A DNA stretch of 64,000 bases from Promethearchaeota archaeon (GCA_048941265.1 JBHLNT010000008.1:10691-74690); one strand, 5' to 3'; numbered from the stretch's first letter, positions 4,323 to 36,659 are shown. Notes: generated from the letters alone by a model not told the origin. A program made the numbers and translations.

Positions 4323-4751
4323 TTACCTTGCCATCCCGATCCAGAATTGTCTCACAGGATCTTCTAATTTATCCTCGATTTCTTCTTCAAAATCAGAGAA
4401 TACGCTGATTTCCATATTCCAATTTTCAAAATCATCAAATATATCTGAATATTTACTGAAAAATCGTTCAGATATTATATCTAATTCATTCAGAACTTTT
4501 TTTTCTTTAAATCGTTTTGAAGAATTTGCCACAAAAAGAAGATTGTTTTTTCTAATGATTGTAAAACGTATATTCTTTATTTCAAAATTTTGTAATCCAC
4601 CATCTCCAATTCCAATTTCCCTGGAATACGAATCTAAAGCGGTCATTAACGCTCCAAAAAGCTGAGCACTAACCTTTGGATCATACACTCTATTAAATAA
4701 CACAATACCACCATTAGTTAAAATCCAAAGATCTTGTATTACTTTCGCCAT
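4323..4751 (-). CDS. Longin/roadblock-like domain protein
   Basis: IQDLWILTNGGIVLF...QLFGALMTALDSYSREI...LQNFEI...LLFVA pattern typical of Asgard longin-like proteins. Confidence 0.7.
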   Translation of the reverse strand: MAKVIQDLWILTNGGIVLFNRVYDPKVSAQLFGALMTALDSYSREIGIGDGGLQNFEIKNIRFTIIRKNNLLFVANSSKRFKEKKVLNELDIISERFFSKYSDIFDDFENWNMEISVFSDFEEEIEDKLEDPVRQFWIGMAR

Positions 4752-10673: not shown

Positions 10674-11453
10674 ACGGCTAAGAGTTGTATTTTTAAAATA
10701 ATCATGGGTGGTGCGTCGAACTCTGGTAAAACGACTTTTATAAATGGCACATACTTTCCTTTTAATGATGAGGAATTCTTTCACATAGGTGTTTCTTTTA
10801 AATTAATAGATTGCCTCGTTAACAATGAGGATTCCTATCTTCTCCAATTATGGGACTTTAAAGTTATGGCGCAATTCAAGTGTTTATATCCAAGTTTCTG
10901 TAGGGGAGCCAAAGGAGCTCTTATTTGTTTTGATGTATCAGATAAAAAATCCTTCGAGGAACTACATTATTGGATAAAAACAATAAGACAAGTGGCTGGA
11001 AAAATCCCAATTATCTTGATTGGCACCAAGAATGATTTAAAAAGAGTAGTTACTGACCGAGAGATAAATAAAATTATTAAAATTTACCAATTAGATGGGA
11101 TTTTTTATACTTCAAAAGATAATTATAATCGCGAAACTATTTTTAAAAATTTAATAAAAAAATTGGATAAAATTTCTGTCAAGCAATTCGCTATATTCTT
11201 ACCAGAATATGATAAGAAATTCAAAAATTTTATCGATTTTTTCTCATTCTGCCCCGTGTGCAAGCGTAAATTACACTTTAATTATTTAAAAAAGTTTTTT
11301 TATAGCAGAAATGAAGAATCAATAAGATTAAAAGATTCATTATTATATTTGATTGATGAGTCAAATGATTTCGATGATATGTATCATTATAATATTGAAT
11401 TTGGAATACCATGCTGTAAATGTTATGAACAACTTTTTGGAGTAAACATTTAA
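10674..11453 (+). CDS. Degenerate Rab-like GTPase with C-terminal Zn-binding domain (paralog 1; probable ACG start)
   Basis: GASNSGKT, LQLWD, FCRGAKGALICFDVS, GTKND; tail CPVC...GIPCCKC. Confidence 0.8.
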   Translation, partial: TAKSCIFKIIMGGASNSGKTTFINGTYFPFNDEEFFHIGVSFKLIDCLVNNEDSYLLQLWDFKVMAQFKCLYPSFCRGAKGALICFDVSDKKSFEELHYWIKTIRQVAGKIPIILIGTKNDLKRVVTDREINKIIKIYQLDGIFYTSKDNYNRETIFKNLIKKLDKISVKQFAIFLPEYDKKFKNFIDFFSFCPVCKRKLHFNYLKKFFYSRNEESIRLKDSLLYLIDESNDFDDMYHYNIEFGIPCCKCYEQLFGVNI

Positions 11454-11609: not shown

Positions 11610-12410
11610 ATGACTAGAACGTATAAATTAAAAATGATAATCGGAGGGGCTGATGGCTCTGGTAAAACTTCATTTTTAGATGGAAAAGCTTCTATCAATC
11701 TAGAATTCAATAATTTAGGTGTTTCATTTAGACCAATTGAATGTATTGTAAATAACGGAGATTCATATCAATTTATTTGTTGGGATCCTAATGTAAAGGA
11801 AAGATATCGTTTTCTTTTTCCAGTATTTTGCAGAGGTGCCTCATGTGCTATTTTATGTTTTGATGTGTCAGATCATAAGACTTTTGAAGAATTAAACTTT
11901 TGGATTAAAACAGTAAGAAAGAACGGGATAATTAATACTTATAAAATACCGATTGTTTTAGTAGGAACTAAAAGCGACTTAAATATACGTGAAGTTAGTG
12001 ATGAGGAAGTTTATAGTCTAATTGACCAATTTGATTTAGATGGAATTTTTTACACATCCATTTATGATAAAGATCTCAAACAGAAAAAGGAGACGATTTT
12101 TAAGATTTTGATTGAAAAGATCGAGCCCTATTATCAAATTGAAGATTTTTCAATTTTCATTCCAAGAGAAGATGATAAATTTAAAGAATTTTTGCAGCAC
12201 TTTTCAATTTGCCCAATCTGTGGAAACCAGAACCACTACGACGCCCTCAAAAAGTTTTATTATAGTAGAGAGCCAAGTCTGATAAACTTAAAAGAAAAAT
12301 TATTAGATCTCATTGAAGAGTCAAAAGATTTTGGTGATACCTATTACAATGAGATTAATGTTGGAATTCCCTGCTGTAAATGTTTTGAAATGTATTTCGA
12401 AAATAAATAG
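11610..12410 (+). CDS. Degenerate Rab-like GTPase with C-terminal Zn-binding domain (paralog 2)
   Basis: GADGSGKT, FICWD, FCRGASCAILCFDVS, GTKSD; tail CPIC...GIPCCKC. Confidence 0.85.
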   Translation: MTRTYKLKMIIGGADGSGKTSFLDGKASINLEFNNLGVSFRPIECIVNNGDSYQFICWDPNVKERYRFLFPVFCRGASCAILCFDVSDHKTFEELNFWIKTVRKNGIINTYKIPIVLVGTKSDLNIREVSDEEVYSLIDQFDLDGIFYTSIYDKDLKQKKETIFKILIEKIEPYYQIEDFSIFIPREDDKFKEFLQHFSICPICGNQNHYDALKKFYYSREPSLINLKEKLLDLIEESKDFGDTYYNEINVGIPCCKCFEMYFENK

Positions 12411-18349: not shown

Positions 18350-19558
18350 TCATAATTTTTTAGCATTATTCAGCTTATTCTGAGGTTTTTCTGAGATTTC
18401 AATCTCTTCCATTTCTTTTACTTTTTTAAAGAATTTCACGGGTTTTGACTCGTCAAACGGCGTGTCGCACACCCAGCACAAGTTTTCTAAATTGCTTAAT
18501 GTTCGTGCACAATTTTCGCAATATAAAGTGTCGCATTCAGGGCAAATATATATATTAAATCGAGCTACTTTATTTTTACAAACTAAGCAAATTTTCTTTT
18601 CTTTAGAAATTGAAACTTCTTCTTCAGTCATTTTTTCAGGTTTTGTGAAAACTCCCCGAATTCCAATGTTGGTTTGACTATCTTGACTTTTTTCACGTTT
18701 TATCCATCTAATTAAAAAAAAACACTCAAGAAAGTAAAAAATGAGATATATAAATGAACCTAAGACATATTCAATAGTTTTTACAACAATAACATTATAA
18801 ATAGTAGAAAACAAAACGCAAACGATTAATGTGAGAATAAATAAATACCAATACTTGATATCACGTGCAAAGAATTCGGGATTGAATACTGTTGGAGCCA
18901 TACATAAAAATATTCCAAAAATACATAAAATGGGAAAAATTAATATTGGCGTGTTTTCTAATCGCATTACTACTGGATTTATATAAATTATAAAGAATCC
19001 TATAAAAAAAGTACCTAAAATAATGAAAGATGTAGCCGCTCTCAGTTCCTTTAGAGACCTTTTCATGAGCGTAAAAAGGGTATGCAAATAATACAATCCC
19101 ATTATTGTAAATGTGTAAGCAAAAAGTTCATAGATTGCTAATTCATAGGGTAATAGAATAATCAATGAGATAATTGCTACGCATAAAATCGGTGCAAGAT
19201 GTATTTTTTTTTTAAGGATTTTCTCATAAGTATAAAAATAATAGATATATGCTGCCCAATAAGAGATATACGCACCTTTAATTAACCACATATAAAATAA
19301 TGAGGGATTCTCAAAATTTCCCCAATAAATATGTCCAATATACTTCCCTTCTAAATAAAAAAAGCTAGAATTTATTAAAATTAAGTAAATTGTGATAAAT
19401 ATAAATAAAAAAGCATACCCATTGTTAATAGACTTTTCAGCGGGATTCTCCTTTCTCTTAGCTAACGCAAAATATTGGAGAGCTGTAATGAACGAAAGAA
19501 TAGTCGCTATACCAATTAAATAAACATCAAAAACACTAAAAATGATAACATTTCCTAT
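18350..19558 (-). CDS. Multi-pass membrane protein with C-terminal 8-Cys RING-like Zn finger (probable ATA start)
   Basis: Frame open 89 codons upstream of ATG 19291 with two more TM helices; tail CLVC-x11-CPEC-x4-CENC-x10-CWVC. Confidence 0.75.
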   Translation of the reverse strand: MGNVIIFSVFDVYLIGIATILSFITALQYFALAKRKENPAEKSINNGYAFLFIFITIYLILINSSFFYLEGKYIGHIYWGNFENPSLFYMWLIKGAYISYWAAYIYYFYTYEKILKKKIHLAPILCVAIISLIILLPYELAIYELFAYTFTIMGLYYLHTLFTLMKRSLKELRAATSFIILGTFFIGFFIIYINPVVMRLENTPILIFPILCIFGIFLCMAPTVFNPEFFARDIKYWYLFILTLIVCVLFSTIYNVIVVKTIEYVLGSFIYLIFYFLECFFLIRWIKREKSQDSQTNIGIRGVFTKPEKMTEEEVSISKEKKICLVCKNKVARFNIYICPECDTLYCENCARTLSNLENLCWVCDTPFDESKPVKFFKKVKEMEEIEISEKPQNKLNNAKKL

Positions 19559-19755: not shown

Positions 19756-20418
19756 CTATTTTCTTCCTTTTTTCATAATAATCTTCATAGCCTTTATATA
19801 CACAGGCGTCGGGATTATTTCTATGTTTTGAATGAAGTTAATCGAGAAAGGTCGATCACATCGAGAACAAAGTCTCGAGCTTTTTAACCAACTTCTAAAC
19901 TCATCAGCGTGTGCTGGGTGTCCACAGTGAGGACAAATAACAATTCCTCTTTTCTCATCTGCAGGAAGTTTTGGTAATTGAAAACAAAATATACATTTGA
20001 AATCTTCCTTATAAAGAATTGTACCTCTTGGTCTTAACTTATTTAGACTATATGTCTTTTTTTTAGCAGCTGAGTTTCCAGTAGCATAAGTTCTATGAAT
20101 TGACGCTGAATTCGACGTTGTTTGACTGTATGTTTTTTGAGTGCTTCTAGTCCTTGTATAGTTCATAGGATTAGTATTAGAGCGTATGGTGGTGCGTGAG
20201 ATAGTGCGGGATGTTGTATGATTTACAGTTCGTGTAGGAGTTCGTCTAATAGTATGAGATGTTGTACGATTTACAGTTCCTGTAGGAGTTCGTCTGGTAG
20301 TGTGAGATGTTGTACGATTTATTGTCCCTCTAGGAGAACGTGTATTGGTGCGATAAGTTGTAGTCTGTGGTTTTGAAAATAAATTAGCTAGCTTAGCAAA
20401 CCATCTCTTTTTAGCCAA
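19756..20418 (-). CDS. RING-like Zn-finger protein with Thr/Arg-rich repetitive N-terminus
   Basis: CIFC-x16-CPHCGHPAH-ADEFRSWL-x5-CSRC. Confidence 0.75.
   Translation of the reverse strand: MAKKRWFAKLANLFSKPQTTTYRTNTRSPRGTINRTTSHTTRRTPTGTVNRTTSHTIRRTPTRTVNHTTSRTISRTTIRSNTNPMNYTRTRSTQKTYSQTTSNSASIHRTYATGNSAAKKKTYSLNKLRPRGTILYKEDFKCIFCFQLPKLPADEKRGIVICPHCGHPAHADEFRSWLKSSRLCSRCDRPFSINFIQNIEIIPTPVYIKAMKIIMKKGRK
20201..20344. repeat. Three tandem 48-bp imperfect repeats (16-aa unit RRTPTGTVNRTTSHTI) inside the RING gene
   Basis: Copies at 20201-20248, 20249-20296 and 20297-20344. Confidence 0.9.
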
Positions 20419-20498: not shown

Positions 20499-20846
20499 TT
20501 AACCTGCGGTACTAGCAGGGATTAAGAGGACTTCGTCTCCATTAGATACACTATAATTGTTAAGGGGCATTCCATCATCCATAGTCACTCCACCCGAGGA
20601 AAGGTGAAAATCAGCTGGATTTAAACCAAAAATATTTCCAATGGTTCGCTTAATATCATTTACGGCAATGCCGTCATTAACAGTTAACTTCTGCTTTTTC
20701 TCACCAGGTCCAATCGTAGATGTGAAATAGAGTGCAATATTTCTCCCTCCTGCTGTGGGAGTCTTGCCAGCTGGAGTTTTTGATCTTGGTACTGGGACTT
20801 CAATATCCTCTGCTAAATCCTCATCAAATTCATCTTTAAAGCTCAT
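20499..20846 (-). CDS. Ubiquitin-like (beta-grasp) protein with disordered N-terminal tail and single C-terminal Gly
   Basis: KLTV...DIKRTI...F...GG..M.D...L.NY.V.NGDEVLLIPASTAG*; SD GGAGTGA before ATG 20846. Confidence 0.8.
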   Translation of the reverse strand: MSFKDEFDEDLAEDIEVPVPRSKTPAGKTPTAGGRNIALYFTSTIGPGEKKQKLTVNDGIAVNDIKRTIGNIFGLNPADFHLSSGGVTMDDGMPLNNYSVSNGDEVLLIPASTAG

Positions 20847-21109
20847 AATTATCACTCCTTTTATTTGTTTTCTTATGATTGTTTTACTTAATTAAATGAT
20901 ACTGGTGGGATTATTTGAATGAATTAGGAATAAATGTGAAGAGTTTTATTATTCAAAAAAAAGAGAAATTGAAACAATCAAAGTTTCTTAAATAACAATA
21001 CTATAAATTGAGTGAACGAATAATAAATCTTATAGGTACAATATTTTATCTTAGAAAGAAATAAGCTTGATAAAAACAGAGCTATTTAATGTGAGCAAAA
21101 AATTCCATT

Positions 21110-21781
21110 ATGAACGCTTCGGATAATGCTGAAAATGTAGTTTTAGGAATAATGAGAGAGTATTTGTCAAGGAAGCCTTTCTTTTCGATGAAAGATATAG
21201 TGGAATTTGTAAATAACCGGGTTAGAAATATCCCTGATATAAATAAGAATAGAATCGAACTCATTACTAAATCCTTTATCAAGAATAGAATAATAATTCC
21301 AGGAACTAAGTTAATGAAAAAGGATATTGTTAATAATCCAACAAGAAATGAAATTTATAAATACATAAAACAAAATCCTGCTAAAAATATCAATGAAATT
21401 ATGAAAGTGCATAATTTAGGGAGTAATTTGGCATTGTGGCATCTTTCTGCGTTGGAAAAATTTCAATTCATAAGGTCTAAAAAAATTAGGAATCAATGTG
21501 TATTTTTTAAATTTGAATCAGATCCGAAATTTGATCATTTATACTATTATATGGCAAATGATATTGTCCAGTCTATTATTAATCTCATGAAGAATGATAG
21601 GCCGCTCAAGATCACAGAAATAGCTGACGGCCTTAAAAAAAATCATAATACTATAAAGAAATACTTGGAAATTTTAACCAATCTGAAATTAGTAGAAATT
21701 GAAAAAGAAAAATCAAGAGATTTATATAAATTAAATAATGAGAGGTACTTAAAAGCAGTAAAATTAGTGCGTAGAGGTTAA
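21110..21781 (+). CDS. Multi-winged-helix transcriptional regulator
   Basis: RNEIYKYIKQNP...WHLSALEKF and ITEIADGLKKNHNTIKKYLEIL HTH motifs. Confidence 0.8.
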   Translation: MNASDNAENVVLGIMREYLSRKPFFSMKDIVEFVNNRVRNIPDINKNRIELITKSFIKNRIIIPGTKLMKKDIVNNPTRNEIYKYIKQNPAKNINEIMKVHNLGSNLALWHLSALEKFQFIRSKKIRNQCVFFKFESDPKFDHLYYYMANDIVQSIINLMKNDRPLKITEIADGLKKNHNTIKKYLEILTNLKLVEIEKEKSRDLYKLNNERYLKAVKLVRRG

Positions 21782-21865
21782 ATTTAATTTACTTCATATT
21801 TAATCCTATTGAATTTTTATTGAATAAAATGAATATAATAATCGTGAGAAAATGATGATAAAATT

Positions 21866-22693
21866 ATGACTTCAAATACATCAAAAAATAAAAAACTAAG
21901 AATTGTGGTACTATTAGCTCAATGTGCTGCTTTTATACTATTCTATCTCATTTTCTTCTTTGGAAATCCTCTTTTCTTTCTTATATTGGTTATAGGGAGT
22001 GTTGTAGTTCTATCCACCGGTACAATTTATACCGTTATACATCAAGAAAGCATGGATGATAGGATGACTGGGAAAAAACAATTCGCATCTAAAGTAAAGG
22101 CGCTTGAAAAGAGAAAAAAGCTACTAAAAGAGAAAGAAACGACTGATATTATTGAAGATTATATAGCTGAAATGCCTTTTATCCGGGAATATGTTGATTC
22201 AGATAAGTCTTATGAAGAGATGTCTTTAATTGAGAATTTTATTTTTACAGAGCTCAGTTCTAAAGAATTGGCTAAAATTAATCGTTTAGGATTAGCAGAT
22301 ATTGAGAAAAAACAGTTCATTAAAGAATTACTTTATTATACTCAGGAAGAAAGGAGTAATTTAATTGATAGCATGATTGAGAACCTTTATAGACCTGATG
22401 AAGAAGTCATATATAAGCCTCCAATGACTTATGTTGAACAGACAAAAACTATTCGTGTTTATGCAATCTCATTAATAGAAGCAGGGGAGAAAAAGAAAAC
22501 AATAAACATAGAATCTACAGAATTTGTAAATATAGTTAAGGATCAGTTGGCGCTTATCTTTGAGTACGATTTGGAAGATTTTCTATTGTCTACAGGGGGT
22601 ATAATCATGAACGAAAACGCCCTAATAAAAGATTATAATATTGAAGATAGGGATGAAATTGTTTTGATTCCTTCAAGAATATCTAAAAAATAA
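21866..22693 (+). CDS. 2-TM membrane protein with C-terminal ubiquitin-like domain lacking a terminal Gly
   Basis: Two N-terminal TM helices; last ~80 aa align without gaps to the Ubl at 20499-20846 (26/80 identities by hand). Confidence 0.8.
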   Translation: MTSNTSKNKKLRIVVLLAQCAAFILFYLIFFFGNPLFFLILVIGSVVVLSTGTIYTVIHQESMDDRMTGKKQFASKVKALEKRKKLLKEKETTDIIEDYIAEMPFIREYVDSDKSYEEMSLIENFIFTELSSKELAKINRLGLADIEKKQFIKELLYYTQEERSNLIDSMIENLYRPDEEVIYKPPMTYVEQTKTIRVYAISLIEAGEKKKTINIESTEFVNIVKDQLALIFEYDLEDFLLSTGGIIMNENALIKDYNIEDRDEIVLIPSRISKK

Positions 22694-22880: not shown

Positions 22881-23456
22881 ATGAGCGAGGATGAGAGAGG
22901 ATTAGTTTATAAAATAACTGTAATTGGTGATGGTGCTGTTGGTAAAACTTCCTTAATAAAAAAGTTTACTAAGGGAGAATTCAATGAACAATATATAATG
23001 ACAATGGGTGCCCAATTCACGCAATATCAAACTCAAGTCGAAGGAAACCCCCTAGAATTAGTTTTTTGGGACATTGCTGGACAGGAGTCATTTGCTCAAC
23101 TAAGACCGAATTTCTATCAAGGTAGTAGTGCTGCGATTATTGTATTTTCCCATGAGAATAACGAAAAAGGCGAAAAGAGTTTTCAAAACATCACAAAATG
23201 GCTTAATGATGTTAAAAGAAACTGCGGAAGGCTCCCGATAATGTTATTTGGAAACAAGATAGATTTAGTCACAAATATCGATACTATAGTAAAGAATAAA
23301 GAAAATCCAAAGTCAAACTATAACGTAGATATCTTAATGAAAGATTATAACTTTTTAGGGTATTATCTGACAAGCGCATTATCAGGGCAAGGTGTTAATC
23401 AGGCATTTAACATATTAGCCAATAAATTATATCAAATTTACAAAAATTTTGCTTAA
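22881..23456 (+). CDS. Rab-like small GTPase
   Basis: GDGAVGKTS, T, WDIAGQE, GNKID, TSAL: all G boxes intact. Confidence 0.95.
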   Translation: MSEDERGLVYKITVIGDGAVGKTSLIKKFTKGEFNEQYIMTMGAQFTQYQTQVEGNPLELVFWDIAGQESFAQLRPNFYQGSSAAIIVFSHENNEKGEKSFQNITKWLNDVKRNCGRLPIMLFGNKIDLVTNIDTIVKNKENPKSNYNVDILMKDYNFLGYYLTSALSGQGVNQAFNILANKLYQIYKNFA

Positions 23457-35490: not shown

Positions 35491-36659
35491 ATGACGAATA
35501 AGGAGATTGAAAGTCGATATGGACTCATTGGCGATGAATTAGACCTTAAAGAAAATGTATCTTTAATTATCAATGAAGATGGAAAAATTCTAAAAGTGCG
35601 ATATGACAACCCTAAAAAGAATATTGAAATTGGAACCGATAAACATAATTTATTAATGATGCCTGGTTTCATAAACTCCCATACCCATATTGTTGATAGT
35701 TTTGCTAAAGAAATGGGATTTAATAAAGATCTAATGGAAGTTGTTGCGCCTCCGAATGGATTGAAGCATAAATTATTAAAGAACACGTCAAGAGAAATAA
35801 AGTCAATCGGTATAAAAAATGCAATTTCAGAAATGCTGACAAATGGTATAACTTTTTTTGTTGATTTTCGAGAAAGAGATATTGAGGGTATTCAATTTTT
35901 AAAAGATTCATTGAAAGGTTTACCTTTAAATTATATAATTTTAGGACGCTTTACCGACGCCAAAGAAATCGAAGAGATTTTCAAAGAGGGCGATGGAATT
36001 GGTTTATCTAGCTATAATGATTTATCTATTTATATTAAAGAGAGGCTAAAGTATTTTAAAAATATATTCAAGAAACCAATTGCTTGTCATGATGCCGAAG
36101 TCGAAAGAGATAAAGCATTATTTGAGGAGATTATAAATGATGATTTAATAGATATTATTGTCCATGGAACTCATTACACAAAAGAAGATTTAGAATTAAT
36201 AAAAAATAAAAAATATCACTAATCTTGTGTCCAAGAAGTAATGGATATTTTGGAGTTGGATTTCCTCCCATAACAGAAATTATAAGATTACAGATTCCTA
36301 TAAGTTTAGGAACAGATAATATTATGATAAATAATACCGATTTATTTGAAGAATTACGCTACACATATCGAATTTTAAGAGTTTTAGGGAGAAATGATGA
36401 AAATGTTAAATTAGATTCAAAAGAATTGTTAAAAATGATAACAATTAATGCTGCGAGAAATTTTAATTTAGAAAAAAATAGGGGATCAATTTCACAGGGA
36501 AAAGTAGCAGATTTATTATTAATAGATTTAAATGATCCAAATTTCTATTCATTTAAAGTTGATTCTAATAATATATTCCCCTTAATAGTACAAAGAGCTA
36601 AATCTGAAAATATAAAAAGAGTTTATATAAGAGGAGAGCTTGTTTTTGAAAGAAGTTAA
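35491..36659 (+). pseudogene. Amidohydrolase/deaminase split by a frameshift at the A6 run 36208-36213
   Basis: First ORF has PGFINSHTH, CHDAE, VHGT; second continues CPRSN, LGTDN, TINAA, GKVADL. One extra A restores ...KKISLILCPRSN. Confidence 0.85.

Follow-up and report, generated by a model that had tools for sequence, protein, structure and literature searches.

A membrane-anchored ubiquitin-like protein encoded beside a tandem winged-helix gene in Promethearchaeota: a possible link between a receptor-tail cassette and the ubiquitin-like system

A 64,000-nucleotide stretch of a Promethearchaeota archaeon genome (GCA_048941265.1 JBHLNT010000008.1:10691-74690; in the following, the window; archaeal, G+C about 30%) carries, near a gene for a free ubiquitin-like (Ubl) protein, a gene that encodes a further Ubl domain fused to transmembrane (TM) helices. 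This protein, which we call TM-Ubl, raises three questions: (i) whether it is a modifier or an integral Ubl-domain protein; (ii) what the conserved region between its membrane anchor and its Ubl domain represents; and (iii) how it relates to the winged helix-turn-helix (wHTH) gene directly upstream. A sequence-only reading had taken it for a membrane-anchored, non-conjugatable product of a local duplication of the neighbouring Ubl gene, serving as a receptor, decoy or scaffold. The answer that we prefer, to which we give a probability of roughly 0.4, is that TM-Ubl acts on the wHTH protein as a membrane tether or anti-regulator, its Ubl domain linking it to the conjugation machinery. The parts of the gene and its product are as follows.

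21866..22693, + strand: TM-Ubl gene, whole open reading frame with stop codon, 275 residues (open reading frame list)
21899..21964, + strand: TM helix 1, residues 12-33, after a basic N-terminus (residues 1-11); hydropathy and charge counts, AlphaFold helix 6-33
21974..22039, + strand: TM helix 2, residues 37-58, rich in S, T, G and Y; the highest conservation in the protein
22040..22138, + strand: basic juxtamembrane linker, residues 59-91, disordered in the model; charge counts and predicted local distance difference test (pLDDT)
22139..22399, + strand: helical tail domain, residues 92-178, candidate wHTH-docking domain; profile comparison, no Pfam family
22400..22444, + strand: hinge, residues 179-193, with a near-invariant Y-x-P-P; family alignments
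22445..22675, + strand: Ubl beta-grasp domain, residues 194-270; AlphaFold and Foldseek
22676..22690, + strand: basic tail RISKK, without Gly; sequence

The membrane anchor proposed in the sequence-only reading was borne out by hydropathy, which gave one hydrophobic stretch (residues ~10-59), and by the AlphaFold model (alignment of 84 family members, mean pLDDT 69.6), in which this stretch forms two helices, 6-33 and 35-49. Given the short loop (about 3 residues) and the flanking charge (net +3.4 on the N-terminal side and +6.6 over the 30 residues past TM helix 2), the N-terminus is predicted to be a two-helix hairpin with both ends, and hence the Ubl domain, in the cytoplasm. The acidic helical linker of the same reading has to be divided. 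Acidity (20 D+E versus 10 K+R) and helical structure (residues 95-174 in the full-length model, block pLDDT 64-82) are found in residues 92-178, which are conserved as a domain, while residues 59-91 are basic instead (11 K+R versus 6 D+E) and lie in a basic segment, residues 47-97, modelled at pLDDT <50. In the hinge, Y183, P185 and P186 are at least 90% conserved in two family alignments.

The C-terminal domain and the free Ubl are paralogues. A gapless alignment pairs residues 195-274 (bases 22448-22687) with residues 39-118 of the free Ubl, 26 of the 80 positions being identical (among them GEKK, VN, IF, DF.LS.GG..M and DE..LIP); over 2000 shuffles, the best gapless identity averaged 9.8 and reached at most 15. 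BLASTP likewise aligned the two proteins gaplessly (27/86 identical, E 1e-15). The elements modelled by AlphaFold (strands, E, and helices, H: E195-202, E210-216, H221-232, E239-243, H254-257, E263-269; block pLDDT 89-93) follow the order strand-strand-helix-strand-short helix-strand of the ubiquitin-like beta-grasp fold. A Foldseek search of the PDB with this domain returned at least 500 matches at E<=0.001, and the 50 shown were all ubiquitin, SUMO, ISG15 or UBL folds, headed by Caldiarchaeum ubiquitin (6fno_D; E 3.7e-7, template-modelling score 0.80, root mean square deviation 1.8 over 80 columns). The Pfam ubiquitin family PF00240 matches residues 208-267 at 23.2 bits (E 5.7e-5), under its 25.4-bit gathering cut-off, and UBL_UBAC1 matches below its cut-off only; some orthologues carry a precomputed PF00240 match, and the whole-family profile found only weak Ubl matches among solved structures (best E 0.036). 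TM-Ubl ends in LIPSRISKK, whereas the free Ubl ends in ASTAG, and 83 of 84 family members have no Gly among their last six residues. By fold and by end, TM-Ubl is thus an integral UBL-domain protein rather than a conjugatable modifier, and in fold, paralogy and non-conjugatable end alike the earlier description of this domain stands.

The segments common to TM-Ubl and the free Ubl are the beta1-beta2 loop, the beta3 turn and beta5, which form the main binding face in ubiquitin. A membrane-bound Ubl that shares these segments and has no Gly end could act like MUB/UBL3, as a recruiter or decoy: E2 or E1, bound non-covalently, would be concentrated or sequestered at the membrane. We consider this improbable: MUBs are anchored through C-terminal prenylation, whereas TM-Ubl has no CAAX-type end and is anchored by its N-terminal hairpin, and such a role would leave both the conserved tail domain and the wHTH pairing described below unexplained. 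Still more improbable is that TM-Ubl mimics cargo, as an in-line, permanently 'ubiquitylated' membrane protein that recruits the Asgard ESCRT (endosomal sorting) machinery to the membrane. Asgard archaea do encode a ubiquitin-ESCRT pathway (PMC9192718), but no ESCRT gene was seen in the TM-Ubl locus.

The helical domain could not be named by comparison with described families. Residues 91-195 had no Pfam match at E<=10, the ESM Atlas gave no usable match, and a single-sequence search found nothing among longer proteins. Modelled alone (42 sequences), the domain reached pLDDT 73.5, its last three helices forming a small bundle (pLDDT 83-93); the best Foldseek match in the PDB had an E of 2.9, and the best VIA-align wide match (Z 5.3) was a generic three-helix bundle. 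Bundles of this size are common docking modules, and the fold by itself says nothing on function.

It is the distribution of this domain that suggests a role. The family profile also matched frames of 500-620 residues in other genomes, the match starting near column 30 and being confined to TM helix 2 and the helical region. At one such locus (L075), a 614-residue protein consists of WD40/PQQ-like repeats, a TM helix and a C-terminal helical domain, with which residues 92-175 of TM-Ubl align in hhalign at a probability of 98.5% (E 2.4e-15, 84 columns); directly upstream of this beta-propeller gene lies a gene for a 226-residue paralogue of the wHTH protein, and the arrangement recurs at a second locus (L078). 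In the window's own genome, a 347-residue FN3-like membrane protein (contig C285) ends in the last part of the tail domain (hhalign 87%, E 3.7e-6), and its gene is directly followed by one for a 235-residue wHTH paralogue; elsewhere (L093), an 863-residue surface protein has two tail copies, with a wHTH gene 30 bases further on. A tail-domain profile, which scores the window's TM-Ubl at E 1.2e-34, picked out 97 cluster representatives from 1.84 billion proteins; these proteins have up to 2081 residues, and the match usually lies at their very C-terminal end. Of the 32 representatives scanned against Pfam, 19 carried Beta_helix/NosD, WD40/PQQ propeller, FG-GAP, Laminin_G_3 or Big_7 domains and 13 had no match.

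Pairing of the two gene families was counted by hand from coordinates and frame lengths in 11 genomes, a pair being genes within about 1 kb on the same strand. A neighbour of the wHTH family was found for 36 of 48 tail-domain genes, distributed as follows.

Window's own genome: 2 of 3 tail-domain genes with a wHTH neighbour
Genomes with TM-Ubl (five): 9 of 11 (of the other two, one has its wHTH gene at ~5 kb and one is truncated by the end of its contig)
Genomes lacking TM-Ubl (five): 25 of 34

Furthermore, the four paralogue classes show the same ranking of divergence in the tail-domain and the wHTH families. Some genomes have 17-20 wHTH matches and 10-13 tail matches, and the receptor/wHTH system reaches 10-20 copies in some; the cassette is strongly expanded in two genomes of genus g6 (G158 and G161), with receptors of up to 2550 residues. 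Judged by these profile comparisons, residues 92-178 are a separate conserved domain common to surface receptors that are paired with wHTH genes. A TM helix, a basic linker, a helical tail and a cognate wHTH gene make up the conserved unit. TM-Ubl, whose tail domain follows a TM helix and whose gene adjoins a same-strand wHTH gene across an 84-base gap, is a cassette member that has a second TM helix in place of the outer domain and, behind the tail, an added Ubl domain; in the family its gene lies between the two free Ubl genes.

These observations bear on the comparison with eukaryotic membrane UBL proteins made in the sequence-only reading. Developed further, it would make TM-Ubl a scaffold of the HERP/Usa1/TMUB1/Dsc3 kind that organises a membrane RING ligase, or recruits Cdc48/proteasome for the extraction and degradation of membrane proteins, the wHTH protein being a mere neighbouring regulator. 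The integral, non-conjugatable Ubl domain is indeed like that of HERP/TMUB proteins; TM helix 2, the best conserved segment (mean top-residue frequency 0.80 in 84 sequences), is rich in polar and small residues, which fits intramembrane contact; and a RING-H2-like gene is present in the TM-Ubl locus of most genomes, its relative at the locus L031 encoding 389 residues with a hydrophobic N-terminal half. However, the TM2-linker-tail module occurs on many surface proteins away from Ubl genes, together with a wHTH partner, and the conserved parts are therefore explained without a ligase. Moreover, no sequence homology to the HERP or TMUB families was detected, the only Pfam match being the sub-threshold one to ubiquitin, and the domain order is the reverse of that in HERP. 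We consider a scaffold of this kind unlikely.

The wHTH gene and the sequences around it in the window are the following.

21110..21781, + strand: tandem winged-helix (ArsR-like) protein, 223 residues, 84 bases 5' of TM-Ubl; Pfam HTH_5/HTH_24
20856..21109, no strand: divergent Ubl/wHTH intergenic region, with blocks conserved across genera
21792..21806, + strand: conserved element CTTCATATTTAATCC, 74 bases 5' of the TM-Ubl start
20927..20941, - strand: related element CTTCACATTTATTCC, 5' of the free Ubl gene, in the same gene-relative orientation

The partnership of the wHTH gene with TM-Ubl is close to invariant. Among the 67 loci with a full-length TM-Ubl reading frame, 66 have a wHTH gene directly 5' on the same strand, at a gap of 39-97 bases, and the one exception is truncated by a contig end. 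Where TM-Ubl is missing (five genomes, four of them 98-100% complete and one 81%), the best wHTH match has an E of 1e-44 to 1e-63, compared with 1e-101 to 1e-118 for the wHTH genes adjoining TM-Ubl; the cognate wHTH gene is therefore absent along with TM-Ubl.

The window's wHTH protein scores above the Pfam cut-off with both HTH_5 (29.8 bits) and HTH_24 (27.7 bits), and its nearest solved relatives are ArsR, Lrs14 and Sso10a-type regulators. These structural matches are weak (best E 0.0011), tail domains occur on very large adhesin-like surface proteins, and in eukaryotic complexes pairs of winged helices can also have the part of a protein scaffold. One could thus picture a cassette with no part in transcription, in which the wHTH proteins are one-to-one cytoplasmic adaptors of surface-protein tails, for anchoring, sorting or assembly, and TM-Ubl is an accessory that marks or recruits the apparatus. 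That 63 of 65 members of the wHTH family match the ArsR DNA-binding model HTH_5, several above the Pfam cut-off (HrcA_DNA-bdg: 61/65), and that a conserved element precedes both flanking transcription units, make this picture, to our mind, a distinctly unlikely one.

The element was found on both sides of the wHTH gene. In the intergenic region between it and the divergent free Ubl gene (Ubl1), which measures 249-282 bases, the block CTTCAAAATCATTCC (read in the direction of Ubl1) is present, with no more than one mismatch, in 50 of 55 loci at ~82-116 bases 5' of the Ubl1 start. Before TM-Ubl, 44 of 66 loci have a related element, CTTCAAAtTyATTCC, which stands 74-78 bases 5' of the start and is oriented in the same way relative to the gene. 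Upstream of TM-Ubl, matches with at most two mismatches occur in 14 of 66 loci (none in 200 shuffles) and with at most three in 27 of 66 (shuffle mean 0.2, maximum 3). A pattern covering CTTCATATTTAATCC and CTTCACATTTATTCC, and derived from both, occurs nowhere else in the window. The two TTC cores of the 15-base element form a direct repeat ten bases apart, an arrangement that would suit a protein with two tandem winged helices.

From the observed anatomy, paralogy, gene order, cassette family and shared element, we infer the binding steps, the DNA target and the direction of control in a tether model. TM-Ubl would be the ectodomain-less member of a Lokiarchaeial two-gene cassette composed of a membrane protein and its cognate tandem wHTH protein. 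Its 85-residue helical tail domain would retain the wHTH protein at the membrane in much the way that a sigma factor is held by its anti-sigma factor, and its sensor would lie inside the cell, in the form of the C-terminal, non-conjugatable Ubl copy, which retains the segments common to it and the free Ubl. Recognition or modification of this domain by E1, E2, RING, JAMM or the proteasome/Cdc48 would free or destroy the tether, whereupon the released wHTH protein would act on the 15-base element before the Ubl-E1-E2-JAMM-RING operon and before TM-Ubl; the outcome would be feedback on the ubiquitin-like system. A wider claim, which we regard as doubtful, is that in some Lokiarchaeia the cassettes at large constitute an undescribed system of one-to-one transmembrane signalling, each receptor having an 85-residue docking domain and a cognate tandem-wHTH factor, and that TM-Ubl wires this system to the ubiquitin-like machinery, recognition or modification of its Ubl domain releasing a factor that controls the Ubl-E1-E2-JAMM-RING operon.

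Several points weigh against the tether model. Some near-complete close relatives that have a free Ubl, among them two genomes from the same genus with a completeness of 98-99%, are without TM-Ubl; it is thus dispensable for the conjugation system. The shared element could be a promoter element of the ordinary kind, recognised by some other factor, and many of the 44 positional matches at TM-Ubl carry 3-4 mismatches. The helical domain has no recognisable fold relative and so no tie to known regulator-binding domains. Finally, 12 of the 48 tail-domain genes have no wHTH neighbour (mostly stand-alone frames of 79-110 residues or genes near contig ends, among them a weak 79-residue tail copy on contig C311), and the adjacency counts come from related genomes and hence are not independent.

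TM-Ubl is restricted to a small part of the Asgard archaea. The protein collection holds 105 homologues (157-293 residues, 39-100% identity), and all of those that are named belong to Promethearchaeota/Lokiarchaeota; the genome collection holds 70 matching loci, of which 67 have the full-length reading frame mentioned above. When the family profile was run against 400 Asgard genomes, with E <1e-60 taken as full-length and the matches counted by hand, full-length TM-Ubl was found in about 92, all within four genera of one family:

Genus g1: 3 of 9 genomes, plus the window's own
Genus g5: 3 of 6 genomes
Genus g11: 50 of 54 genomes
Genus g12: 35 of 42 genomes

Since matches at the level of the Ubl domain occur in 179 of the 400 genomes, the range of TM-Ubl is nested within that of the free Ubl. 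In a maximum-likelihood tree of 71 Ubl domains, all 24 TM-Ubl domains (from 24 genomes) fall into one clade with a support of 100/100, on a stem that lies ~1.9 changes per column away from the free Ubls; the duplication is therefore an old one. This tree rules out a recent local duplication, and on this point we depart from the sequence-only reading. A candidate for a divergent TM-Ubl (G168:C123) proved to be a protein with a zinc ribbon, a coiled coil and a Ubl domain.

The association with the free Ubl gene, by contrast, is as that reading expected, and is part of a larger gene cluster, represented in the window by the following genes.

20499..20855, - strand: free Ubl, 118 residues, ending in ASTAG; open reading frame list, BLASTP and tree
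19756..20418, - strand: RING-H2-like protein, downstream of the free Ubl; weak Pfam RING matches only
18350..19291, - strand: multi-pass membrane protein with a C-terminal RING/C1-like zinc finger, 313 residues

A divergent free Ubl lies within ~1.1 kb of TM-Ubl in 56 of the 67 loci, 5 of the other 11 being cut by a contig end, and a second, convergent free Ubl lies 8-55 bases away in 58 of 67, and is also present at L007. At L031, one strand carries a RING membrane protein, JAMM (JAB, 55 bits), E2 (UQ_con, 88 bits), E1 (ThiF, 197 bits) and Ubl1; the wHTH and TM-Ubl genes are divergent from this block and are followed by the convergent second free Ubl and a coiled-coil protein. In the window's clade the E1-E2-JAMM genes have been relocated: in this genome all three come after a second Ubl (70% identical) on contig C327, so that E1 and E2 are absent from the window cluster but present in the genome.

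The 313-residue RING membrane protein of the window has no relatives at E<=1e-5 in the 70 related loci, the closest (L005 and L074) included; its gene seems to have been inserted between alaS and the RING-H2 gene in this lineage only. It had been considered as a homologue of the RING-TM protein of L031 and was rejected, since in BLASTP the two match over no more than 33 residues of zinc finger (E 0.011).

At their C-terminus the free Ubls have [ST][TIV]AG, with a single Gly after Ala and not Gly-Gly, and in several genomes 1-7 extra residues follow the Gly (AGYE, AGN, AGLN and AGRLI, for example), as in a pro-form; at the other end they have an acidic, disordered extension of ~35 residues. In a third Ubl architecture, the Ubl is C-terminal and is combined with a zinc ribbon and a coiled coil, in the order zinc ribbon, coiled coil, Ubl; it is encoded at L003 1489-2343 (-) (= G000:C29, 284 residues, in the window's own genome, ending in SSTAGYFF) and at L095 2619-3401 (-) (260 residues, in a relative, ending in IPSRVAG), so that the Gly end is kept or obtainable by processing. 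A 307-residue protein (L077 1583-2506 (+) = G261:C6) also has, after an N-terminal domain that is unassigned, a C-terminal Ubl, which ends in SSTAG and matches Pfam ubiquitin at 30.1 bits, above cut-off.

Elsewhere in the window are one longin-like protein and three Ras-family small GTPases (4323-4751 (-), 10704-11453 (+), 11610-12410 (+) and 22881-23456 (+)), the GTPase that adjoins TM-Ubl being conserved in position only in the closest relative, L005. An amidohydrolase is split over two adjacent reading frames (35491-36222 and 36225-36659, both +; Pfam Amidohydro_1 positions 2-87 and 220-345); a frameshift, a pseudogene or faulty assembly may lie behind this.

The ubiquitin-like systems of Asgard archaea are regarded as forerunners of that of eukaryotes and, to our knowledge, have so far been discussed in terms of their modifier, E1, E2, RING and JAMM parts. 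A full-text literature search, covering few subscription journals and no supplements, found no membrane-anchored Ubl protein and no receptor-tail/wHTH cassette in Asgard archaea. With TM-Ubl, the Asgard ubiquitin-like locus gains a conserved UBL-domain protein that is anchored in the membrane. The use of non-conjugated Ubl domains for docking or signalling, a hallmark of ubiquitin biology in eukaryotes, is therefore already present in the archaeal system. Cassettes of receptor tail and wHTH protein may be a main transmembrane signalling route in these archaea, and release of a regulator through TM-Ubl, if true, would give archaea a counterpart to the ubiquitin-dependent release of membrane-tethered transcription factors that eukaryotes have.

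Among known systems, the nearest in fold is the ubiquitin of Caldiarchaeum subterraneum (PDB 6fno, 6fnn, 6fj7), the best structural match of the C-terminal domain at a sequence identity of 12%; that protein is a free modifier, processed by a JAMM protease to a Gly-Gly end. MUB/UBL3 are membrane-anchored ubiquitin-fold proteins (PMC6158211) and resemble TM-Ubl in that the anchored fold has no Gly-Gly conjugation; TM-Ubl differs in its N-terminal TM hairpin and in its Lys-rich end SRISKK, with no Cys nearby. HERP/Usa1 and TMUB1/Dsc3 likewise carry a non-conjugatable ubiquitin fold on membrane helices, and TM-Ubl is encoded beside RING proteins; in TM-Ubl, however, the order is hairpin, tail domain and C-terminal Ubl, an additional conserved helical domain and an adjacent wHTH gene are present, and the protein is archaeal, known from four genera of one family. 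With MUBs and the eukaryotic membrane UBL proteins alike, the likeness seems to be one of principle only: the type of anchor differs, and no homology was detected.

Two further comparisons concern the proposed logic rather than the fold. In bacteria, extracytoplasmic function (ECF) sigma factors and their single-pass anti-sigma factors also form adjacent one-to-one pairs of a DNA-directed regulator and a membrane protein, with many paralogues per genome, and the anti-sigma factors also combine a small cytoplasmic helical domain beside a TM helix with a variable outer sensor domain. In the archaeal cassette, however, a tandem wHTH protein takes the place of the sigma factor, no match of the tail domain to anti-sigma domains was found in Pfam or by fold, and the tail domain stands at the C-terminus (type I topology), while an anti-sigma domain stands at the N-terminus; the resemblance seems to be one of working principle only, and not of family membership. 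In yeast Spt23/Mga2 and animal Nrf1/NFE2L1, a membrane-held transcription factor is released via the ubiquitin system, as we propose here, and released Nrf1 feeds back on the degradation machinery. There the factor itself is membrane-bound and ubiquitylated, whereas here the tether would be a separate protein with a built-in Ubl.

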